Below are positions 29,930-43,986 of a DNA stretch of 64,000 nt, one piece after another. This stretch comes from a virus (Duplodnaviria; Heunggongvirae; Uroviricota; Caudoviricetes). The notes below the pieces were generated by a model that saw nothing but the letters and a program-made list of their open reading frames with translations, made no database searches and was not told where the DNA came from. The translations under genes were made by a program, and so were the position numbers. The DNA lies in the IMG/VR virus record IMGVR_UViG_2609459800_000001; one strand, given 5' to 3'. The stretch's first letter is position 1; each line of letters begins with the position of its first letter.

Positions 29930-30255
29930 AAGGTTGCGCTACGTAAAATCTGCGAAATGTTGGCAGTGTTAGTGCTCCAGATTTCGCGTAGCGCACTTAG
30001 CACCACCAATCAATCAGAGGTGAAAAATGGGATATTCAGCTGCTAAAGTGTCCACTCATCTTGAGTTTGAGAAAAACCGTGGTTACTGGCGGGCAAAAGG
30101 GTTTGATCGTGATAGTTGCCAACTGTCATTATCGCGCGGTGAAGAGAAAATAGAACGCACGCGCGGTCGCTGGCGTTTCTATGACGAGAACCATAAACAG
30201 GTAAAGGCAGAGCCGATCCTGTACACTTTACTTAAAACCATTATCTGAGTGTTAA

Positions 30256-31287
30256 ATGTCTAATTTACTGACCGTACACCAAAATTTGCCTGCATTACCG
30301 GTCGATGCAACGAGTGATGAGGTTCGCAAGAACCTGATGGACATGTTCAGGGATCGCCAGGCGTTTTCTGAGCATACCTGGAAAATGCTTCTGTCCGTTT
30401 GCCGGTCGTGGGCGGCATGGTGCAAGTTGAATAACCGGAAGTGGTTTCCCGCAGAACCTGAAGATGTTCGCGATTATCTTCTATATCTTCAGGCGCGCGG
30501 TCTGGCAGTGAAAACTATCCAGCAACATTTGGGCCAGCTAAATATGCTTCATCGTCGGTCCGGGCTGCCACGACCAAGTGACAGCAATGCTGTTTCACTG
30601 GTCATGCGACGGATCCGAAAAGAAAACGTTGATGCCGGTGAGCGTGCAAAACAGGCGCTGGCGTTCGAACGCACTGATTTCGACCAGGTTCGTTCACTCA
30701 TGGAAAATAGCGATCGCTGCCAGGATATACGTAATCTGGCATTTCTGGGGATTGCTTATAACACCCTGTTACGTATAGCCGAAATTTCTAGGATCAGAGT
30801 TAAAGATATCTCACGTACTGACGGTGGGAGAATGTTAATCCATATTGGCAGAACGAAAACGCTGGTTAGCACCGCTGGTGTAGAGAAGGCACTTAGTCTG
30901 GGGGTAACTAAACTGGTTGAGCGATGGATTTCTGTCTCTGGTGTGGCTGATGATCCGAATAACTTCTTGTTTTGCCGTGTCAGAAAAAATGGTGTTGCCG
31001 CGCCATCTGCCACCAGCCAGCTATCAACTCGCGCCCTGGAAGGGATTTTTGAAGCAACTCACCGATTGATTTACGGGGCTAAGGATGACTCTGGCCAGAG
31101 GTACCTGGCCTGGTCTGGACACAGTGCCCGTGTCGGAGCCGCGCGAGATATGGCCCGTGCCGGAGTTTCAATACCGGAGATCATGCAAGCTGGTGGCTGG
31201 ACCAACGTAAATATTGTCATGAACTATATCCGTAACCTGGATAGTGAAACAGGGGCAATGGTGCGCCTGCTGGAAGATGGCGATTAG
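30256..31287 (+). CDS. cre: Cre tyrosine recombinase
   Basis: 343 aa, essentially identical to P1 Cre as recalled; loxP 419 bp upstream. Confidence 0.97.
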   Translation: MSNLLTVHQNLPALPVDATSDEVRKNLMDMFRDRQAFSEHTWKMLLSVCRSWAAWCKLNNRKWFPAEPEDVRDYLLYLQARGLAVKTIQQHLGQLNMLHRRSGLPRPSDSNAVSLVMRRIRKENVDAGERAKQALAFERTDFDQVRSLMENSDRCQDIRNLAFLGIAYNTLLRIAEISRIRVKDISRTDGGRMLIHIGRTKTLVSTAGVEKALSLGVTKLVERWISVSGVADDPNNFLFCRVRKNGVAAPSATSQLSTRALEGIFEATHRLIYGAKDDSGQRYLAWSGHSARVGAARDMARAGVSIPEIMQAGGWTNVNIVMNYIRNLDSETGAMVRLLEDGD

Positions 31288-31304
31288 CCATTAACGCGTA
31301 AATG

Positions 31305-31321
31305 ATTGCTCTAATTCTTTG
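31305..31321 (+). promoter_or_regulatory. C1 operator between cre and downstream gene
   Basis: ATTGCTCTAATTCTTTG. Confidence 0.55.
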
Positions 31322-31337
31322 ATATTTATGGTGACAT

Positions 31338-31649
31338 ATGAGAAAGGATTTCAACATCGACGGAAAATATGTAGTGCTGTCTGTGAGCACTAATATTCAG
31401 TCGCCAGCCGTCATTGTCACTGTAAAGCTGAGCGATAGAATGCCTGATATTGACTCAATATCCGTTGCGTTCCCTGTCAGAAGTATGCGTAGTGCTGAAC
31501 ATTTCGTGATGAATGCCACCGAGGAAGAAGCACGGCGCGGTTTTGCTAAAGTAGTGTCTGACTTTGGCGAACTCTTGGATAAGGTTAACAATGTCCTTTC
31601 AATCAGTTCAGCAAGGTCCAAAGCGTTAACAGCTTCCATGATGAAATAA
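31338..31649 (+). CDS. cre-associated small protein (103 aa)
   Basis: ORF immediately downstream of cre. Confidence 0.5.
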   Translation: MRKDFNIDGKYVVLSVSTNIQSPAVIVTVKLSDRMPDIDSISVAFPVRSMRSAEHFVMNATEEEARRGFAKVVSDFGELLDKVNNVLSISSARSKALTASMMK

Positions 31650-31653
31650 AAAA

Positions 31654-31673
31654 AGCCTGGCAAGGAGCCAGGC
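31654..31673. terminator. hairpin flanked by A-run/T-run (bidirectional terminator)
   Basis: GCCTGGC-aagga-GCCAGGC. Confidence 0.45.
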
Positions 31674-31776
31674 TGCACTAAAGACCGGGTTTGTGTTCCG
31701 CATCCAATCAATCAGAAAGGAGTATAGCACATAGATACTAAAGTGAAAAAATGTGACTGAAGATAAACAATATAAC

Positions 31777-31800
31777 ATTGCTCTAATTGATTGTTATAAT
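31777..31800 (+). promoter_or_regulatory. C1 operator fused to a -10 TATAAT (ref-type promoter)
   Basis: ATTGCTCTAATTGATTG then TATAAT at 31795-31800. Confidence 0.55.
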
Positions 31801-31997
31801 TGAGCCGTGGCGTTAGTCAACTACGAAGACGTGGCCATTACCTACTTAACCAGTTCCGCCAGGGCAGCAGAGTAGGTTTCATCTCGGATGTACCATGCCT
31901 GCATGTTTTCCAGAGAAGCCCGCGAGGTTCCCGGACAGGACTCTGCCATTGCGATAGATTAAATGCAATAACCTAAAAGCGATAACGTGGTGGAAAA

Positions 31998-32635
31998 ATG
32001 TTCATCAGAGCTTATTTAAGGGCATCAACGGAAGATCAGTTTGCCGATCGGGCAAAAGAGATGCTGGGGCAGTTTGTTCAGGAGCGGGGACATAAAATAG
32101 CCAGTTACTACCGGGAGAACATAAGCGGTACAAAACTCGACCGCCCGGAACTGGGACGCTTACTGATGGACAGCCACCGCAATGATATTTTACTGGTCGA
32201 GCAAATTGACCGCCTGACCCGTCTGAGTAACAGTGACTGGATTACGCTGAAAAAGCAGATAGAACAACACGAACTGCGGATTGTCGCCTGGATGTATCCA
32301 CCTCATGGCAGGCGCTGTCAGATAAAGACCCTTCGCAGGCTGACCCAATCACCCGCGCCGTGATAACCGCCATCAATAACATGCTTATCGACCTGATGGC
32401 CGCGATGTCGCATAAGGACTGGCTGAGCCGTCGCCAACGGCAACAACAGGGAATTGAACGGGCTCATACGCTGGGTAAATACCGGGGATAACAGGCCGAT
32501 CAGGAACGGCATCAGAAAGTCCTGTACTACCGGCAGGTCAAGAAACTAAGTATCCATGAAACGGTAGATGCGACAGGGTACAGTCCTTCACAGATATGCC
32601 GCATTCAAGAGAGCCTGAATCGGAATAAAAAGTAG
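31998..32635 (+). pseudogene. serine recombinase (resolvase/invertase family) pseudogene with two frameshifts
   Basis: Catalytic N-terminus, middle and HTH C-terminus lie in three different frames. Confidence 0.7.
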
Positions 32636-32734
32636 CCCTGGCGTTAATGGATTACCTTTCCAGGCTAAGCTCATTGCTCCTGTCAGATACGCAGCCCTGC
32701 CTGTAATAATACAGACTGGGCAATGTGTTGCCAC

Positions 32735-33136
32735 TCAGGCTGACAACTGTCGGAGGATATCCGCTGTATTATAATGAGCCCGTTTTTCTATATATTTCCC
32801 GTCCTTCAGAGTGATCATAAATATCAGAGAAAAGCGCACTTTCCTGCCGCTGGCAGGATGCCCAAGGAATTCACGGGTCTGCACGCCTTCAAAGATAAGA
32901 TAGCAGGCGACTTTATCGTCTCTGGCAAAGATTTCGTGGATACGCATTGTAAATCCCGGAAAAGCATCCATATGGCCTTTTTCCTGTACGATAAACTGCT
33001 CACTGTTCAGCGGTGTATCCACCTGAGAATAGAATTTAAAATCCGGATGGCAGAGGTTTTTCACCTCATCATATTTATTTTCTTCAATCAGACGATAAAA
33101 CTTTTTAACCGTTTTGATATTTTCTTCAACAGACAT
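32735..33136 (-). CDS. NTF2-like / SnoaL-type ester-cyclase-like protein
   Basis: 133-aa ORF; pattern resembles SnoaL-like polyketide cyclase family. Confidence 0.55.
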   Translation of the reverse strand: MSVEENIKTVKKFYRLIEENKYDEVKNLCHPDFKFYSQVDTPLNSEQFIVQEKGHMDAFPGFTMRIHEIFARDDKVACYLIFEGVQTREFLGHPASGRKVRFSLIFMITLKDGKYIEKRAHYNTADILRQLSA

Positions 33137-33144
33137 ATTGCACC

Positions 33145-34134
33145 TCATTTTTCAGTTTCTTTACCTGCCGGAATATTGCCTGCCGGCGTTCCGTTAAATG
33201 TTTTTCGCCATTCACTGGGACTGACTCCCATCCGCTGCCGGAATATCTGCCGGAAAGTAATGGTGGACTGAAAGCCTGCCAGTTCGGCAACCCGCTCCAC
33301 TGCAATATCTGTACTTTCCAGCAGTTCCTGACTCCGCCGGAGACGCTCTGTGGTGATCCACTCCCAGACCGTCATTCCTGTGGCCGAATGAAAATGGCGT
33401 GTAAGCGTTCTTCGGCTCATGGAGGCTAAATGGGCCAGAGTGTCAATATCATGTGGTAATCCCAGATTTGCGGACAGGTATTCCAGCAGCTGGTTTATGC
33501 GGTTATCGGACGTACTTTTGGGAATAAGCAGTTGCCGGTACTGTGCCTGTCCGCCTTCCCGGTAAGGAGGAGCAACCATCCGGCGGGCTATTTGATTAGC
33601 CGTATATCTGCCCAGGCGTTGCCGGATCACATGGAGACAACAGTCCAGTGCTGCGGCTGTACCGGCTGAGGTGATAATCCGCTCGTCCTCAACATAAAGC
33701 ACGTTCACGTCCAGATGAACCGCCGGGAAAAGCATCTGGAAATCCCGTTCAGCCTCCCAGTGCGTGGCCGCCCGTTTACCATCCAGCAGACCGGTGTAAG
33801 CCAGAACAAAACTCCCCAGGCACAGGCCCACCACCTGAGCTCCATTTTTCCAGGCTGCAACCAGGGCACTGAGCAGAGTTTCAGAAGGCCTTTCATGGAT
33901 GTGTTTCCAGAAAGGAATAATAACGATATCGGCCTCTGCCAGTGCATCAAGCCCGTATTCTGCCCTCATCGCCGTACCTTCAGCAGACCAGATAAGCCCG
34001 GGCTCTTCCGCACATACCCGGCGGCTGAAGAGAGCCTTCCCTTCCAGTATCTCCCCGAACAGGATTAGTGGAACGGAGACATGAAATGTACTGAACCCTT
34101 CGGTGATCACTATAGCGACAGTGATGGTGGACAT
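33145..34134 (-). CDS. GlxA-family transcriptional regulator (DJ-1/PfpI domain + AraC-type HTH)
   Basis: N-terminal DJ-1-like domain with Cys nucleophile motif (VVGLCLGSF); C-terminal AraC HTH. Confidence 0.8.
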   Translation of the reverse strand: MSTITVAIVITEGFSTFHVSVPLILFGEILEGKALFSRRVCAEEPGLIWSAEGTAMRAEYGLDALAEADIVIIPFWKHIHERPSETLLSALVAAWKNGAQVVGLCLGSFVLAYTGLLDGKRAATHWEAERDFQMLFPAVHLDVNVLYVEDERIITSAGTAAALDCCLHVIRQRLGRYTANQIARRMVAPPYREGGQAQYRQLLIPKSTSDNRINQLLEYLSANLGLPHDIDTLAHLASMSRRTLTRHFHSATGMTVWEWITTERLRRSQELLESTDIAVERVAELAGFQSTITFRQIFRQRMGVSPSEWRKTFNGTPAGNIPAGKETEK

Positions 34135-34149
34135 GCCATGGCCTCCGGG

Positions 34150-34926
34150 TTAAATCGTAACTGATTCACCATCAGCAGGAACGGCAACTGACGCCTGGAT
34201 CTGGTTATCGCGGGCATATTCCAGCAGTTCCTGACGGGTCAGCAGACAGTGGTTTACGGCCTCCATGTGCGTTGCCACAATCAGTGCCTCTGGTACGATA
34301 CGATGGGCTTTCAGGACATCTTCCCTGCCGAAAATAATGGGGCCGAATCCGAGAACATGCGCCCAGCCCGTATTCATAATAACGACGCCAGGATTGAACC
34401 GACGTAAATTATCCTCTACAGCCTTGATCCAGATGGTATCCCCGACCAGATAGAGCGTTTTTTCGGACGGATGCTGGAAGACCACCCCACAGGCATCCCC
34501 AAGGATTGCTGCGAGTTGCGGGTTAGCATAGGCTTCGTCCGAACCATGCTGACAAACGGTTTTAATAAGTGAAATTTCGCCAAATGTGCTTTTGTCAGAC
34601 AGAATAACAAGGTTGCTGAAGCCCTGGGAACGCAGGATCTTTTCATCATGTTCATTCTGAACATAAATCAGTTTATCTTTCGGGATGTGCGCAACAGCCG
34701 CTTCATCCCAGTGGTCAGGGTGTGTGTGGGTGACAATAATGGCATCCACATCCAGCAGTACATCAAGGTCAAAAGGCAGCTCAGTCATCGGGATGCGGAT
34801 ATCTGACCGGGCCGTTCCTTCGAATCCCGGATAGGCTTCTTTTTTCGCAAGCATCGGATCGACAAGAAATTTTTTACCAGCGTAAGAAATGAGTTGTGTG
34901 GCGTTACGTACCTGGATGATCTTCAT
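34150..34926 (-). CDS. MBL-fold metallo-hydrolase
   Basis: THTHPDHW metal-binding motif (HxHxDH). Confidence 0.8.
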   Translation of the reverse strand: MKIIQVRNATQLISYAGKKFLVDPMLAKKEAYPGFEGTARSDIRIPMTELPFDLDVLLDVDAIIVTHTHPDHWDEAAVAHIPKDKLIYVQNEHDEKILRSQGFSNLVILSDKSTFGEISLIKTVCQHGSDEAYANPQLAAILGDACGVVFQHPSEKTLYLVGDTIWIKAVEDNLRRFNPGVVIMNTGWAHVLGFGPIIFGREDVLKAHRIVPEALIVATHMEAVNHCLLTRQELLEYARDNQIQASVAVPADGESVTI

Positions 34927-35144
34927 TTTAGCAAGTCCTGTATTGGTTAATAACCATCAGAGCCATATCATGATGGCCTAATGTGATAATTATGATTAAA
35001 TCAGGCCTGCCTGCCACTGAAATAATGCCATATTTGGATGATATCAGGCCATTCTTCTGGCTCTCAGGTTTCAGGAATATGTCTGCTGAAAGCGGGTACA
35101 GATCTGACGCATTGAAGGGAAGTATCGTCCTTTAAGGCTTATTG

Positions 35145-35531
35145 ATGTCAGCCAGTACAAAAAATCATCTTAACGTACAATATCTTCCGTTTCCCAAACG
35201 GAGCCCACCAACGACGGAGGAACGGCGCGTCGCCAATGCTCTTGGCGCTCTCCCCTGCATTGCCTGCTATATGCATGGAGTAATATCTAATGAGGTGTCT
35301 CTGCACCATATCGCCGGTCGTACCGCGCCGGGTTGTCATAAAAAGCAATTGCCACTTTGTAGATGGCACCACCAGCATGCAGCTCCGGCGGAAGTAAGAG
35401 AAAAATACCCATGGCTGGTCCCTGTTCATGCCGATGGTGTGGTTGGAGGCAAGAAAGAATTCACCTTGCTGAACAAGTCAGAGATGGAGTTACTGGCTGA
35501 CGCCTATGAGATGGCAAATATCATGCACTAA
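35145..35531 (+). CDS. HNH endonuclease-like protein at the P1 ref position
   Basis: CIAC...HHI...CRWHHQ HNH/Zn motif; 128 aa from first ATG. Confidence 0.6.
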   Translation: MSASTKNHLNVQYLPFPKRSPPTTEERRVANALGALPCIACYMHGVISNEVSLHHIAGRTAPGCHKKQLPLCRWHHQHAAPAEVREKYPWLVPVHADGVVGGKKEFTLLNKSEMELLADAYEMANIMH

Positions 35532-35719
35532 TAAATATATTATTTTTAATGATAAATGATTGACAACTGACAAGTGACTTCAGTCAGAATCATCACACGC
35601 CCGGTACGGATGGATCCCTTTTCAAATATTCCATGGACGGCACAGTCTGAGTACCGGGCGCTACCTTCAGTTGTATTGCTAAGCCGCCGCTGGTGGCTTT
35701 TCTTTTTTGTAGGGGCGCT

Positions 35720-36559: not shown

Positions 36560-37168
36560 ATGTCTAATACCTCGGCAAATGAAATTGTACCGCACTTACC
36601 GCTAATTTTCGAAAATGAAGCTAATGGGATTCTTCAGGATCTGGCCTATACTCCATCGCTTATGGGGTTGATGATGTTCCCGACAGAAGAGGAGCTGAAA
36701 GCAGCGAGAAGCTACATAATTAACGTTTTTGAAGAGTGTTACCGAGCCGGTCATTTGCGCATTATGGGCTTTACTAATGAAGAAAACTTGTTCGGATACG
36801 CCTTAATCTTCGGACATCCATCGGGAAATTTTCCGTTGTACTGTCATAAAATATATGTATATGAGCAATATCGTGGTAATGGACTTGGAAGTAATATACT
36901 GGCAGAAATACTTGCATTTCCAAATGAGGTCGCTTTGATTTGCCAGTCTGATTTGGTTCCTTTTTATGAATCAGCCGGAATGCACTTTAAAGGAAATTAC
37001 ACCACTCCATCAGTCGCCAATTTCAAAAAAACTCGCGGCATGTATGAGGGGCTTTGTTTGATGAGCACTGAAAAAAATGCAAACTCTAATGGTGTACCTA
37101 TATTCATGCTGAACGATAACGATATTGATAACATCATACAGGCTATCGCATCATCGGCACCACGATAA
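36560..37168 (+). CDS. GNAT-family N-acetyltransferase
   Basis: Acetyl-CoA motif QYRGNGLGS; AT-rich gene with AT-rich leader. Confidence 0.75.
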   Translation: MSNTSANEIVPHLPLIFENEANGILQDLAYTPSLMGLMMFPTEEELKAARSYIINVFEECYRAGHLRIMGFTNEENLFGYALIFGHPSGNFPLYCHKIYVYEQYRGNGLGSNILAEILAFPNEVALICQSDLVPFYESAGMHFKGNYTTPSVANFKKTRGMYEGLCLMSTEKNANSNGVPIFMLNDNDIDNIIQAIASSAPR

Positions 37169-39337: not shown

Positions 39338-40119
39338 CTGTTATCCAGCGTCTTCACATCCCAGTTACCCGATTTGGTGCCTTTGAAGGTAAAGATGATC
39401 TCCACGTCTGCGCGCTGGCTGTCGAAGTCCAGCGACTTAATGCGAACGATATCACCGGCACAATCGTAGTATTGGCCTACACGCCATGAGCGATCGCCGA
39501 TAACAAGGAACTCACTCGCATGGTTAACCAGGTCAGGATCAACATCCAGAATGCCTTTATTTATTGCATCCTCCACCAGTGGGCGCAGGCGTTTGATATC
39601 CGTCGCGGCCTTCTGAGTACGGTTCAATAATTTCTCATAGCGGGAGATGGCTTGAGAGATATTAGCCTTGCGCTGAATGGCGCTTTTCAACGACGCGCGA
39701 TACTGTGCTAACAACATACGGTCTGTGTGATGGACACTCCCCCAGCGGGCCTTCCAGTCTGCGTTATCAGCTGCTTTGGCCATTACCGCCTGTTTGAATT
39801 TAGCTACCTCGGCGGTGGTCTTTTCAAATTCCGCTTTGCTTCGCTCTAATTCAGCGGTAAGTACCTCCACATCCTCACCAGCTGCGTGCTGCGCCTTGAT
39901 GTAGTTCTGAAGGTCGATAGTAGCCTGTTCTTTCTGGCGAGCGCGTTGCGCGGCTTTCGCCTTATCCATTTGAACCTGCATCATTGCCAGACGTTCACCG
40001 TCATCCTTCGCGGTATACATCTGCATTTCGATCATATCATTGGCGTCGGCGTTCTCCATTTCTGACTTATCTGAACGGAGGATATCGGAGATCCTGGGCT
40101 TCGTTTGGGAAACGTACAA
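39328..40119 (-). CDS. coiled-coil protein (263 aa) whose 5-prime end abuts inverted repeat L
   Basis: TTG start inside the repeat; first ATG gives ~243 aa. Confidence 0.4.
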   Translation of the reverse strand: MYVSQTKPRISDILRSDKSEMENADANDMIEMQMYTAKDDGERLAMMQVQMDKAKAAQRARQKEQATIDLQNYIKAQHAAGEDVEVLTAELERSKAEFEKTTAEVAKFKQAVMAKAADNADWKARWGSVHHTDRMLLAQYRASLKSAIQRKANISQAISRYEKLLNRTQKAATDIKRLRPLVEDAINKGILDVDPDLVNHASEFLVIGDRSWRVGQYYDCAGDIVRIKSLDFDSQRADVEIIFTFKGTKSGNWDVKTLDNRWM

Positions 40120-40331
40120 TATTGTACGGTTGCGCTATTGCGGTAGGGTGTACTCCAACGCTATACGGTCTTTGGCAGACCTTTAGGGAAATGAGATAAG
40201 CTAAATGCGATAAGAGAAAAGCAATAACTTAAAGGCAATAGCTGATTACGATAAATCAATCAGTTACTTATCAGTATCGATTAAAAAATGCTCCTAACGT
40301 ACAATAATTTCCGTTTCCCAAACCGACCCCT
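40093..40331. repeat. 239-bp inverted repeat, left copy (MITE-like)
   Basis: Near-identical inverted copy at 43748-43986; contains palindrome CGTACAATATTGTACG (40113-40128); own ends form ~26-bp imperfect TIR. Confidence 0.85.
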
Positions 40332-40341
40332 AATAGCCGGA

Positions 40342-40539
40342 CTACGGACGCGCAATAATTCGCCCCTGACTTTCCAGCAGTTGGTAAGCATGTCCGACGG
40401 TCATGAAGCTCATGCCGCTGCTGGCGACCTGTTCGCGCAGTGACGGCAGACGATCGCCGGGTCGCCAGACGCCAGAGGCGATCTGTTCGCAAAGTTGTTC
40501 AGCCAGACGCTGGTATTTTTTATTCTGGTTTCTCGTCGG
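40342..40539 (-). pseudogene. GntR-family regulator fragment (HTH domain only)
   Basis: KKYQRLAEQL...GDRLPSLREQ...MTVGHAYQLL HTH; no start codon; ends 11 bp from repeat. Confidence 0.55.
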
Positions 40540-40691
40540 TCAATGCAGGTGAGCCTCGCAGTGTATAACAGTGAATAAAATTCACAACGATTTGCAAACT
40601 GTTATGGTTAAATATGTCTGTTCTGTTTCTGCCCCTCATTGCCTCACACGCTTAGAATTGCGCTGAATCAATTTTTAATGCGGAGTCAGGC

Positions 40692-42092
40692 ATGTTTGGT
40701 CTTGATGCGTATCACCTGGCAAGGATCCAGTTCGCCTTTACAGTTTCATTTCACATTATCTTTCCGGCGATCACCATTGGGCTTGCCAGTTATCTGGCGG
40801 TGCTGGAAGGCCTTTGGCTAAAAAGCAAAAATCCGGTCTGGCGCTCGTTGTACCACTTCTGGTCAAAAATATTCGCCGTAAATTTCGGCATGGGCGTGGT
40901 TTCCGGTCTGGTGATGGCCTATCAGTTCGGCACCAACTGGAGCGGTTTTTCGGAATTCGCAGGCAGTATTACCGGGCCGTTGCTTACCTATGAGGTGCTG
41001 ACCGCTTTCTTCCTTGAAGCCGGATTCCTCGGGGTGATGCTGTTTGGCTGGAATAAAGTCGGTCCGGGTTTGCATTTCTTCTCAACCTGCATGGTGGCGC
41101 TTGGCACCCTCATTTCCACCTTCTGGATCCTGGCGTCTAACAGTTGGATGCAAACGCCGCAGGGGTTTGAGATCGTCAACGGCCAGGTTGTGCCCGTGGA
41201 CTGGTTCGCCGTTATCTTCAATCCTTCGTTCCCTTATCGGCTGCTGCATATGTCCGTCGCCGCATTTCTCAGTAGCGCGCTGTTTGTCGGCGCTTCGGCA
41301 GCCTGGCATCTGCTGCGCGGCAACGCAACGCCAGCCATTCGCACGATGTTTTCCATGGCGTTGTGGATGACGCTTATTGTCGCGCCGGTGCAGGCGTTAA
41401 TCGGCGATATGCATGGGCTGAACACCCTGAAACATCAGCCAGCCAAAATCGCCGCGATTGAAGGTCACTGGGAAAACCCGCCGGGTGAGCCCACGCCGCT
41501 GCTGCTGTTTGGCTGGCCGGATATGGAACAGGAACGCACCCGCTATGGACTGGCGATCCCGGCGCTGGGAAGCCTGATCCTGACGCACAGTCTGGATAAA
41601 CAGGTTCCGGCGCTAAAAGAATTCGCCAAAGAGGATCGCCCTCACTCGACGATCGTGTTCTGGTCGTTTCGCATCATGGCCGGCCTGGGCATGTTAATGA
41701 TCCTGCTAGGGCTCTGTGCGCTCTGGCTGCGCTACAGGCAGCGCCTCTACACCTCGCGCCCGTTCCTGCGCTTTGCGCTATGGATGGGACCCTCGGGGCT
41801 CATCGCCATTCTCGCGGGCTGGGTGACCACTGAGGTCGGACGCCAGCCGTGGGTGGTGTACGGTTTACAGCGTACTGCCGACGCGGTGTCGGCCCACGGC
41901 GATTTACATATGAGCATTTCGTTGCTCGCTTTCTTTGTTGTCTACAGCTCAGTCTTTGGCGTCGGCTACAGCTATATGATTCGCCTGATCCGCAAAGGCC
42001 CGCTGGAAGATGATTCCGCGCCGCCGCCGGGCACACCCGCCAGGCCGCTTTCCGCCGCCGTCCTCGATTCTCAACATAAGGCACATCGCTAA
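40692..42092 (+). CDS. cytochrome bd-type quinol oxidase subunit I (CydA/AppC/CioA family, short Q-loop)
   Basis: 466 aa; alignable with E. coli CydA N-terminal region and GRQPW motif. Confidence 0.9.
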   Translation: MFGLDAYHLARIQFAFTVSFHIIFPAITIGLASYLAVLEGLWLKSKNPVWRSLYHFWSKIFAVNFGMGVVSGLVMAYQFGTNWSGFSEFAGSITGPLLTYEVLTAFFLEAGFLGVMLFGWNKVGPGLHFFSTCMVALGTLISTFWILASNSWMQTPQGFEIVNGQVVPVDWFAVIFNPSFPYRLLHMSVAAFLSSALFVGASAAWHLLRGNATPAIRTMFSMALWMTLIVAPVQALIGDMHGLNTLKHQPAKIAAIEGHWENPPGEPTPLLLFGWPDMEQERTRYGLAIPALGSLILTHSLDKQVPALKEFAKEDRPHSTIVFWSFRIMAGLGMLMILLGLCALWLRYRQRLYTSRPFLRFALWMGPSGLIAILAGWVTTEVGRQPWVVYGLQRTADAVSAHGDLHMSISLLAFFVVYSSVFGVGYSYMIRLIRKGPLEDDSAPPPGTPARPLSAAVLDSQHKAHR

Positions 42093-43102
42093 TGGGTATT
42101 GATTTATCGGTTATCTGGTTTGTGATCATCGTTTTCGCCACGCTAATGTATATCGTGATGGATGGATTCGATTTGGGTATTGGCATTCTGTTTCCTGTCA
42201 CACGAAACGCAGAGGATCGTGATGTGATGGTCAATAGCGTCGCGCCGGTGTGGGACGGTAATGAAACCTGGCTGGTGCTGGGCGGCGCGGGGCTGTTTGG
42301 GGCTTTCCCGATGGCCTATGCGGTTATTATCGATGCGCTGACCATTCCGTTGACGCTGATGCTGATCGGACTGATTTTTCGCGGCGTGGCCTTCGAGTTT
42401 CGCTTCAAGGCCACGCCAGCCCACCGCCCATTTTGGGACCATGCTTTTCTCGGCGGGTCGATTCTGGCTACCTTCGCCCAAGGGATCGTGGTTGGCGCAG
42501 TGATCAACGGTTTCCCGGTGACCGGTCGCAGCTACAGCGGCGGGCCGTTCGACTGGTTAACCCCCTTCACTCTGTTCTGTGGCGTCGGACTGGTCGTTGC
42601 CTATGCGCTCTTAGGCGCAACCTGGCTGGTGATGAAAAGCGAAAATCCGCTTCAGGATAAAATGCGCAGCGTCGCGAAAAAACTGCTGCTGGCCCTGCTG
42701 TTGTCAATTGCGATAATCAGCCTCTGGACACCGTTAGCGCATCCGGCGATCGCCGACCGTTGGTTTACGCTTCCCAACCTGGGCTATCTGCTGCCGGTTC
42801 CGGTGCTGGTGATCGCGTTCAGCGTCTGGTTATGGCGCACACTGGGTCGTCCGGAAAACCACACGTTTCCGTTTGTGCTGACGCTCGGGCTAATCTTCCT
42901 TGGTTTCAGCGGCCTGGGCATCAGTATCTGGCCGCACATTATTCCGCCTTCGGTTACCCTCTGGCAGGCAGCCGCCCCCGCCCAGAGTCAGGGGTTTATG
43001 CTGGTCGGTGCGCTGCTCATCATTCCGGTGATTTTGGTGTACACCTTCTGGAGTTACTATGTGTTTCGCGGCAAAGTGCAACATGGCGAGGGGTATCACT
43101 GA
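42092..43102 (+). CDS. cytochrome bd-type quinol oxidase subunit II
   Basis: 336-aa polytopic protein, start overlaps subunit I stop. Confidence 0.9.
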   Translation: MGIDLSVIWFVIIVFATLMYIVMDGFDLGIGILFPVTRNAEDRDVMVNSVAPVWDGNETWLVLGGAGLFGAFPMAYAVIIDALTIPLTLMLIGLIFRGVAFEFRFKATPAHRPFWDHAFLGGSILATFAQGIVVGAVINGFPVTGRSYSGGPFDWLTPFTLFCGVGLVVAYALLGATWLVMKSENPLQDKMRSVAKKLLLALLLSIAIISLWTPLAHPAIADRWFTLPNLGYLLPVPVLVIAFSVWLWRTLGRPENHTFPFVLTLGLIFLGFSGLGISIWPHIIPPSVTLWQAAAPAQSQGFMLVGALLIIPVILVYTFWSYYVFRGKVQHGEGYH

Positions 43103-43230
43103 TGCAACATTCTCTCTGGAAACGCCTGATGTGGCTGGTCATCCTTTGGGGCGGCAGCGTGTTGGCGCTGGCGGCGGTGGGCATGTTTTTTCGCCTGCTC
43201 ATGACTGCGGCGGGGTTTAAAGCGCATTAA
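43102..43230 (+). CDS. small membrane protein (42 aa), CydX-like position
   Basis: ATGA overlap with subunit II stop; single TM helix. Confidence 0.45.
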   Translation: MQHSLWKRLMWLVILWGGSVLALAAVGMFFRLLMTAAGFKAH

Positions 43231-43334
43231 GCGGACACCTCGCCGGATGTCGGCTTTGGGCCAGGCGTTAACCGGCGGAAATAAATACCAACACAAAGGC
43301 CCGGTAAACGCCACCGGGCTGATGTCGCAAAGGA

Positions 43335-43745
43335 TTAAGGTTTACGCTTCGGCAGCGTTTTCATCAGATCTTCCGGACTGACGGAACCCACCACGCTGCC
43401 CGGCAGCGGCATTTTAAGAATGTGATCTTCAATCTTGCCGATAACGTGCATTTCACACGGGCGACAGCCAAATTTCAGCGTCAGCACCTCATCACCGTTG
43501 ACCAGTTGCATTGGCGTCGCTTTCCAGCTTTTGATGTTACCTTTCGCCTGTTTCGGGCAAAGATTAAAGGCAAAACGCAGGCAATGCTTGGTGATCATCA
43601 CAGGCACATCGCCCTTTTCTTGATGCGCTTCATACGCCGCGTCGATCAACTGTACGCCATAACAATGGTAGAACTCACGCGCCTTCTGGTTATAGACGTT
43701 TGCCAGAAAACTCAGATGCGTCTGCGGGTAGACCGGCGCGGGATC
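43335..43745 (-). pseudogene. C-terminal fragment of an unidentified host-type gene (5-prime end replaced by repeat)
   Basis: Frame stays open upstream into inverted repeat R with no start codon. Confidence 0.4.
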
Positions 43746-43747
43746 GG

Positions 43748-43986
43748 AGGGGTCGGTTTGGGAAACGGAAATTATTGTACGTTAGGAGCATTTTTTAATC
43801 GATACTGATAAGTAACTGATTGATTTATCGTAATCAGCTATTGCCTTTAAGTTATTGCTTTTCTCTTATCGCATTTAGCTTATCTCATTTCCCTAAAGGT
43901 CTGCCAAAGACCGTATAGCGTTGGAGTACACCCTACCGCAATAGCGCAACCGTACAATATTGTACGTTTCCCAAACGCAGCCCAGG
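43748..43986. repeat. 239-bp inverted repeat, right copy
   Basis: Reverse complement of 40093-40331 with one visible mismatch. Confidence 0.85.

Follow-up and report, generated by a model that had tools for sequence, protein, structure and literature searches.

A decayed Tn3-family transposon remnant carrying a predicted SaxA-type operon at the truncated ref gene of a P1-like phage-plasmid

Which element has come to lie between the C1-controlled promoter of ref and a shortened ref gene in a P1-like phage-plasmid, what might its genes do, and whose control do they obey? These questions are raised by DNA from the IMG/VR virus record IMGVR_UViG_2609459800_000001, in which the window, i.e. the whole stretch of 64,000 nucleotides (nt) whose positions are used below, represents such a phage-plasmid. 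The backbone runs in the order cre, c8, ref control region, a ref-like open reading frame (ORF, 35145-35531), and mat, and is interrupted ahead of this ORF by an island of 3365 bp (31842-35206). The best explanation overall, and one we hold to be quite likely, is that a Tn3-family transposon entered ref and decayed, leaving a self-regulated operon of the SaxA type next to a crippled ref gene.

The borders of the island are defined by comparison with phage P1 (NC_005856), which the DNA around it matches at ~96%. On the left side, BLAST aligns 30200-31841 with P1 380-2026, and on the right side, by inspection, P1 homology restarts at 35207, the equivalent of P1 2313, such that the island stands in place of the 286 bp of P1 2027-2312. 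The P1 DNA that is gone comprises the -10 element of the P1ref promoter, the ref start codon (P1 2077), and ref codons 1-79, in agreement with the original prediction that the 5′ end of ref had been lost on insertion. The island was also correctly suspected to be foreign DNA absent from reference P1, as none of the 23 matching phage records, including P1 and P7, covers it and the P1 alignment gives breakpoints at 31841 and 35207.

With both junctions and at 99+% identity, the island recurs in at least 60 PLSDB plasmids and in 70 of 5426 complete E. coli genomes. The carriers checked, pJIE250_3 and pTET-GZEC065, are P1-like plasmids of the IncY group; the carriers also include one plasmid from Cronobacter. 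P1-like cre-c8 DNA is found in 689 of the same 5426 genomes, so about 10% of E. coli P1-like elements carry the island, and because all full-query copies have the same junctions, they point to one ancestral event. The best match, NZ_CP097001.1 (E. coli NCCP 15734, 423177-431757; cre-c8 100%, island 99.6%), lies inside a 5.17-Mb chromosome record and could be either an integrated P1-like element or an assembly join; there are 14 P1-like cre-c8 places on chromosomes. Pseudogenes are already annotated by RefSeq PGAP in the NCCP 15734 island (recombinase, Ref, and a partial left-edge ORF). The insert of pJIE250-3, described by Venturini et al. 2019 as five extra ORFs including a putative regulator and a putative resolvase, with Tn3, ref, and SaxA unmentioned, is the same island, 99.6% identical.

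To judge from its sequence, the island is an immobilised, decayed Tn3-family transposon remnant. The parts that derive from the transposon are given here with their counterparts on plasmid RCS57TR364_p (LT985265).

31842-31949, minus strand: internal tnpA fragment, amino acids (aa) 627-660 of a 994-aa TnpA; left junction at 31841/31842.
31950-31997: res stub, the tnpR-proximal 48 bp, collinear with LT985265 1953-1906.
31998-32634, plus strand: tnpR serine resolvase pseudogene, with a Pfam Resolvase N-terminal domain (31998-32363).
35113-35168, plus strand: stretch resembling the 3′ end of tnpA, last ~18 codons, 89% nt identity to LT985265 5001-5054, tblastn match to aa 978-993, translation ending in ...GKYRPLRLIDVSQYKKSS and a stop.
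35169-35206: 38-bp Tn3-family terminal inverted repeat (IR), from outer to inner GGGCTCCGTTTGGGAAACGGAAGATATTGTACGTTAAG; right junction at 35206/35207, P1 2313.

Of the 994 residues of TnpA, those detectable by tblastn are confined to aa 627-660 on the minus strand and aa 978-993 on the plus strand. The internal fragment has 90% nt identity to the tnpA of LT985265 (3949-4053; 94% over 34 aa by tblastn), and PGAP labels it either a partial pseudogene or a 'Tn3 family transposase'. It is joined directly to the 48-bp tnpR-proximal stretch, whereas in LT985265 the tnpR-tnpA intergenic (res) region measures 166 bp, about 118 bp of whose equivalent are gone from the island; a 2.0-kb internal deletion would thus have taken tnpA codons 1-626 together with these ~118 bp of res. 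The tnpR pseudogene is 87-88% identical at the nt level to the intact 213-aa tnpR of LT985265 and of the IncHI2 plasmid pEF01 (CP040806). A recombinase broken by two frameshifts had been proposed; it is a true pseudogene, and its lesions are instead a 1-bp deletion near 32286, placed by alignment with intact homologues, a nonsense change of a Lys codon (AAR to TAA) at 32489-32491, and a 10-bp deletion at 32609/32610 that is seen in no relative compared. Sequencing error as the cause of these lesions was rejected, given that the first two are also present in the pJIE250_3 copy, that PGAP flags the NCCP 15734 tnpR as 'frameshifted; internal stop', and that identity is 99+% across the 70 complete genomes. 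The ancestry of tnpR and res is evidently of the Tn3 type, and their function is apparently lost. The res-site repeats looked for near 31800-32000 and 34930-35140 come down to the 48-bp stub on the left; nothing res-like lies at 34930-35140, a region made up of the cargo promoter and the transposon end. An Rfam scan of 31500-35700 (E ≤ 0.1) gave no match.

The terminal repeat is identical at 37 of its 38 positions to the IRs at the transposon ends in LT985265 and to the IR that follows the cargo in plasmid p1493-3. No partner IR was found in 31700-35300 with up to 9 mismatches allowed, nor any terminal-repeat pair bounding the island, and no 5-bp target duplication (ACCAA) is visible, the left end having been deleted along with P1 2027-2312. 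The tnpA fragment, the tnpA 3′-end-like stretch with its IR, and the transposon origin of the first 21 codons of the ref-like ORF had escaped the original prediction.

The likeness extends to the overall layout. In both the transposon of LT985265, an unnamed Tn3 type, and the tnpA-deleted element of pEF01, the 38-bp terminal repeat ends in ...ACGTTAAG, tnpA and tnpR diverge around res, and passengers lie between tnpR and the far IR; the tnpA, tnpR, and IR sequences of the island are 88-97% identical at the nt level to this type, and pEF01 likewise carries a regulator and SaxA-like pair as passengers. Unlike these relatives, the island keeps one IR, about 35 plus 18 tnpA codons, 48 bp of res, and a broken tnpR, shows no target duplication, and adjoins, without a gap, the site where flanking P1 DNA was deleted. 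The pEF01 element itself (positions 2723-10000, 7.3 kb) has 38-bp IRs and a 5-bp target duplication (TATTT), and is ordered IR, deleted tnpA (leftward; aa 1-88 fused to 756-992), res, intact tnpR (rightward), GlxA-type regulator, SaxA-like MBL (~67% nt identity to that of the island), MFS, second MBL, and IR; it is a mobile sax-like module on IncHI2 plasmids. Within the P1 family, the island is comparable to Tn2 of phage P7, another Tn3-family element in the c8-ref-mat interval; the P7 element is an intact resistance transposon, whereas the island is decayed and holds no resistance gene.

The two oppositely oriented tnpA pieces best fit an extended terminal repeat in the canonical layout, and the transposon ends of pEF01 stay similar, by eye, for ~20 bp past the 38-bp IR. 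Two points weigh against so simple an account: the ~54 bp inside the right IR could stem from a second copy of the transposon or from an inversion, so that the order of events is not unique, and a target duplication cannot be checked because the left end is lost. An inversion or two-copy model was set aside in view of pEF01, which shows the canonical layout of IR, delta-tnpA, res, tnpR, cargo, and IR. In the order of events that we infer, a canonical Tn3-family transposon, arranged as IR, tnpA (leftward), res, tnpR (rightward), passenger genes, and IR, would have jumped into ref of an ancestral P1-like phage-plasmid. In a first deletion, the left IR would have gone together with the 3′ third of tnpA and ~290 bp of adjacent P1 DNA (P1ref -10 and ref codons 1-79), and in a second one tnpA codons 1-626 and most of res, with the decay of tnpR following both; the element would now be immobile and passed on vertically with the phage-plasmid. 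Continued mobility, brought about by a related transposase acting on the island in trans or by an exchange that a resolvase mediates, would accord with the one perfect-looking IR, with related IR-bounded mini-elements elsewhere in the same 64-kb stretch, and with the target duplication of the tnpA-deleted pEF01 relative, yet the IR is single within 31700-35300, the res core and tnpR are destroyed, and the full-query copies in complete E. coli genomes have the same two junctions, all of which makes such mobility extremely improbable.

What the transposon remnant carries is a leftward unit of three genes, whose Pfam content is that originally predicted (MBL-fold hydrolase, GlxA-type DJ-1/AraC regulator, SnoaL-like protein), together with candidate control elements.

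34150-34926, minus strand: SaxA-family MBL-fold hydrolase, 258 aa, first gene of the operon (Pfam Lactamase_B_2).
33145-34134, minus strand: GlxA-family regulator, DJ-1/PfpI plus AraC-type HTH, 329 aa.
32735-33148, minus strand: SnoaL/NTF2-like protein, 133-137 aa, 'ester cyclase', third gene of the operon (Pfam SnoaL, 8.8e-24).
34989-35050, minus strand: cargo promoter/operator region, with TGRCCYGAT-like direct repeats and a candidate -10.
32624-32667, minus strand: candidate terminator hairpin and U-run downstream of the SnoaL-like gene (fold z = -2.0), stem AGCCUGG...CCAGGGCU followed by ACUUUUUAUU.

Along its whole length, the hydrolase matches the metal-dependent isothiocyanate hydrolase SaxA of PDB 6BRM (E 1.2e-92, 53% identity, residues 1-256 against 1-257), and H67, H69, D71, H72, H127, D163, and H220, which make up the MBL metal-binding motifs (HxHxDH), are invariant in 14 aligned family members, 6BRM and 3RPC included. 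SaxA converts R-N=C=S to an amine and COS, its family forms five clusters in Enterobacterales, for all of which catalytic activity is reported, two SaxAs whose function in planta has been proven are only 44.9% identical to each other, and many saxA genes are carried by mobile elements (PMC7036374). The cargo hydrolase is most likely an isothiocyanate hydrolase, predicted to catalyse R-N=C=S + H2O -> R-NH2 + COS. The earlier suggestion of a small-molecule detoxification or signalling unit is sharpened accordingly: a detoxification-type unit, conserved in other genera, stands, and its enzyme becomes a predicted isothiocyanate hydrolase of the SaxA type.

Like SaxA of Pseudomonas syringae and Pectobacterium (6BRM), the cargo hydrolase has a full-length MBL fold of the same size, 53% identity, and all metal-binding motifs, and like the sax genes it adjoins a transcriptional regulator in a mobile-element setting. 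Unlike them, it resides in a P1-like phage-plasmid of E. coli rather than in a plant pathogen or an insect-gut plasmid, its activity is predicted only, and the linked gene is SnoaL-like instead of saxB, while Pectobacterium has an isochorismatase gene upstream. In the literature, Pseudomonas SaxC appears only as a 'transcriptional regulator' and SaxB as an uncharacterised protein; equating the GlxA-type regulator with SaxC is unproven, since the domain architecture of SaxC is not given there. In Pectobacterium brasiliense CP128509 (4069-7832), isochorismatase, SaxA-like MBL, GlxA-type regulator, and a second GlxA-type regulator genes follow one another, with a stand-alone DJ-1/PfpI gene and another DJ-1/AraC regulator in the vicinity; this locus may be the enterobacterial counterpart of saxB-saxA-saxC.

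The regulator contains DJ-1_PfpI (PF01965) at residues 6-171 and HTH_18/HTH_AraC (PF12833/PF00165) at residues 233-311, and is named a GlxA family regulator by PGAP as well. Against the NCBIfam FtrA model (NF006902) it scores 311.7 bits, below the cut-off of 425, and it is thus FtrA-related rather than FtrA. The elbow Cys of the DJ-1 domain, within the motif G-L/F-C-L-G, is invariant among the regulators aligned, which makes covalent electrophile sensing plausible. The regulator probably senses an electrophile and would do so, possibly, through this Cys.

The linkage of these genes is conserved well beyond the island. In Photorhabdus, Pectobacterium brasiliense, and Yersinia frederiksenii, the chromosomal MBL gene is followed 25-28 bp on by the DJ-1/AraC regulator gene, which in these three genera always lies directly downstream of it. 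Enterobacter ludwigii and a large contig from a metagenome have all three genes, ordered MBL, regulator, SnoaL-like; in Vibrio zhugei the order is MBL, SnoaL, regulator. The SnoaL-like homologues that adjoin SaxA-like MBL and GlxA-type regulator genes in the metagenome contig, E. ludwigii, and V. zhugei are 57-61% identical to that of the island; such conserved linkage marks the SnoaL-like protein as a dedicated partner. On plasmid p1493-3, the trio occurs at 87.6% identity and is likewise followed by the same 38-bp IR.

Two considerations tell against the isothiocyanate assignment. The authors of the Pectobacterium work themselves allow that, in non-plant bacteria, proteins of the SaxA family may act on something else (PMC7036374), and the predicted SnoaL-like partner would have no place in the known SaxA reaction. 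The unit could accordingly be a detoxification or catabolic module for a non-isothiocyanate substrate (another electrophile, a lactone, or an ester), its likeness to SaxA reflecting family membership only. The spread of homologues among animal-associated, insect-pathogenic, and marine bacteria (Photorhabdus, Yersinia, Vibrio), the JGI label 'UlaG-like' given to homologues, and the tight linkage of a SnoaL-like gene without a role in that reaction all favour such a module. However, the 53% full-length identity to crystallised SaxA exceeds the 44.9% between two proven SaxAs, and activity is reported to be preserved in all five enterobacterial clusters, so that we regard a different substrate as possible, if doubtful.

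How this predicted SaxA-type operon is controlled is a separate matter. The backbone features to the left of the island are as follows.

30256-31287: cre, P1 backbone, left of the island.
31338-31649: c8, P1 backbone, left of the island.
31772-31800, plus strand: P2ref promoter, ATAACA-17-TATAAT, with Oref embedded (promoter scan 10/12 with TG); P1 backbone, outside the island.
31777-31793: C1 operator Oref, ATTGCTCTAATTGATTG, 17 bp, asymmetric, overlapping the promoter.

The C1 operator with TATAAT that had been read at 31777-31800 is confirmed: all 17 operator positions are identical to the annotated P1 Oref, and the -10 element of P2ref (TATAAT, 31795-31800) is the same as in P1. By this identity, Oref/P2ref is retained as a candidate C1-controlled promoter. 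What now lies ahead of it is the tnpA fragment, read in antisense, and after that the res stub and the tnpR pseudogene; promoter and cargo operon face each other.

The cargo genes, in turn, are tightly packed (the MBL stop lies 15 nt from the regulator start, and the regulator stop overlaps the SnoaL start) and are preceded by operator-like direct repeats at 35050-35043, 35031-35025, and 35007-35000, i.e. ~124, 103, and 81 nt before the MBL start codon. A candidate -10 found by promoter scan (CATAAT, 34994-34989) abuts the promoter-proximal repeat. The core of the distal repeat (TG-CC-GAT ... TG-C) is invariant in six of six aligned upstream regions, and the promoter-proximal repeat is located at the same distance from the ATG in the island, p1493-3, and Photorhabdus; Pectobacterium and Yersinia have copies that are similar to the eye. 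The regulator would act at these conserved TGRCCYGAT repeats, which overlap the operon promoter, and the hairpin after the SnoaL-like gene may serve as the operon terminator. The cargo would thereby form a complete, autonomous minus-strand transcription unit with predicted control elements of its own.

These features bear on the original prediction that the cargo is under prophage repressor control, having been captured by the C1-controlled ref promoter and thus silent in the lysogen and switched on at induction. An intact Oref/P2ref is indeed aimed into the island, and the predictions gave no convincing intrinsic terminator on the plus strand of the island by which the cargo and the ref-like ORF would be shielded from P2ref. 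However, all three cargo genes lie on the opposite strand, making P2ref transcripts antisense to them, the operon has its own upstream region with a promoter-like site, repeats conserved across genera, and a terminator-like hairpin, and the first 0.8 kb past P2ref would yield untranslatable pseudogene RNA that is likely Rho-terminated. Capture by C1 is very unlikely on these grounds, and the claim is not upheld. C1 would still govern P2ref, which would fire into junk DNA antisense to the cargo, and at most, prophage induction could give transcription antisense to the self-regulated operon.

The second consequence of the insertion concerns ref itself, whose remainder is here termed ref′.

35145-35531, plus strand: ref′, in-frame fusion ORF, 128 aa, consisting of 21 transposon-encoded residues and Ref residues 80-186.

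As predicted, the gene is shortened, with 128 aa against the 186 aa of P1 Ref. Its ATG (35145) lies inside the tnpA 3′-end stretch, from which the frame runs out through the terminal repeat into ref residue 80. Residues 22-124 of Ref′ cover profile positions 1-102 of the 103 of RecA_dep_nuc (PF16786, E 1.3e-50), that is, the whole HNH domain, and this core differs from P1 Ref 80-186 by two residues. The native N-terminal DNA-binding segment, which is basic, disordered, and ~76 aa long, has been replaced by 21 unrelated residues, of which three are basic (K6, K18, R19) as against 25 of 76 in the native segment; PGAP labels the product 'Ref family protein, missing N-terminus' (pseudogene). The N-terminal 76 aa of Ref are needed for DNA binding, and deltaN74 and deltaN76 variants bind no DNA and are nearly inactive, with ~4% product in targeted cleavage (PMC4330346); Ref-deltaN76 also fails to induce SOS (PMC4713147). 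Sharing its HNH/RecA_dep_nuc core with P1 Ref, Ref-deltaN76, and phiW39 deltaN74, Ref′ is a natural equivalent of these laboratory truncations, from which it differs in its 21-residue transposon leader, in the loss of the P1ref promoter, and in its distance of 3.4 kb from P2ref/Oref. With the N-terminal segment gone and the published truncations nearly inactive, Ref′ is probably non-functional or weak, and as ref′ has also been cut off from its two native promoters, the gene is likely to be inactive or a strong hypomorph.

Loss of Ref function would be the consequence, and several findings sit uneasily with it. The ref′ ORF is open in all four island copies examined (this one and three others), and most of its nt differences from pJIE250_3 are synonymous, a pattern for which residual function, or exchange with intact ref genes by recombination, could account; moreover, P2ref transcription may read through to ref′, as no strong plus-strand terminator is predicted. 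One could therefore envisage a functional short Ref, expressed from a promoter located in the transposon end or in the intergenic region of the cargo, or by P2ref read-through, in which the division-inhibiting or nuclease activity of the C-terminal domain is differently targeted. The in-frame fusion with AAGG 8 nt upstream of the ATG, the ORF kept intact in four independent copies with mostly synonymous differences, and the complete Pfam domain would suit such a protein, as would published work in which it is mainly the C-terminal domain of Ref that inhibits cell division and deltaN variants regain single-stranded DNA nuclease activity at 10-fold higher concentration (PMC4330346, PMC4713147). 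Opposed to it are the deltaN74/deltaN76 results (no detectable DNA binding, 4% targeted-cleavage product, no SOS), the leader with three basic residues in place of 25 of 76, the absence of a consensus plus-strand promoter for ref′ in the promoter scan, the PGAP pseudogene call, and a His-to-Pro change in the nuclease core in three of the four copies examined; a functional Ref′ is, on balance, unlikely. A TGnGATAAT-like extended -10 for ref′ near 34983-34992 was noticed by eye only and is not claimed. The core change affects codon 44 (35275), which encodes Pro in the three other copies and His here and in P1 Ref (CYMHG to CYMPG). The ref′ segment differs from pJIE250_3 by ~2.8%, compared with ~0.1% across the island, which points either to recombination of the backbone on the right-hand side of the IR or to relaxed constraint.

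Elsewhere in the window, the region downstream of mat is variable among P1-like elements. At 36560-37168, an ORF for a GNAT-family acetyltransferase (202 aa) lies where P1 has EcoPI res on the minus strand, and is followed up to ~39300 by several ORFs without a Pfam match, while pJIE250_3 holds another gene set there (an EAL-domain protein and an HTH protein). A second Tn3-derived structure occupies 40093-43986, in which two inverted, 100%-identical, TIME-like mini-elements of ~235 bp, bounded by IRs related to that of the island (5-8 mismatches), flank 3416 bp with cytochrome bd oxidase subunits I (40692-42092) and II (42092-43102). It has no 5-bp target duplication. In other P1-like plasmids, an 'N-6 DNA methylase / helicase-related' gene contains both of its flanks, separated by ~1.58 kb, so that ~1.4 kb have been replaced; the structure is found in 31 PLSDB plasmids.

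Structurally, the island is a case of routine Tn3-family decay within a phage genome, one that RefSeq annotation already shows and a single paper has noted. The new element here is the SaxA assignment, and the gain is interpretive rather than conceptual; our literature search for work tying phage-plasmids to isothiocyanates found nothing relevant. As a tentative idea, and as a whole a rather improbable one, a P1-like sublineage (~10% of these elements in E. coli, often from poultry or other animal isolates) might have fixed an operon for defence against plant toxins, comprising a SaxA-type isothiocyanate hydrolase, an electrophile-sensing GlxA regulator, and a dedicated SnoaL-like partner enzyme; as a trait of lysogenic conversion it would guard gut E. 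coli from dietary glucosinolate breakdown products, with the same insertion disarming Ref and thereby removing ciprofloxacin hypersensitivity and a 40-fold lysogenisation penalty. If so, one transposition event would have improved both host fitness and the persistence of a plasmid-like prophage. Loss of Ref could even be advantageous, as ref+ lysogens are sensitised to ciprofloxacin and ref cuts lysogenisation 40-fold (PMC4713147), and the natural truncation provides a ready-made test of whether lysogens benefit from Ref loss under fluoroquinolone. Should the SaxA-like operon prove active, the P1-like phage-plasmids, which are mostly considered for the resistance genes they bring, would also carry a diet trait, namely tolerance to the mustard-oil isothiocyanates of brassica feed and food, and SaxA biology would reach beyond plant pathogens and insect-gut bacteria to the E. 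coli of the vertebrate gut.

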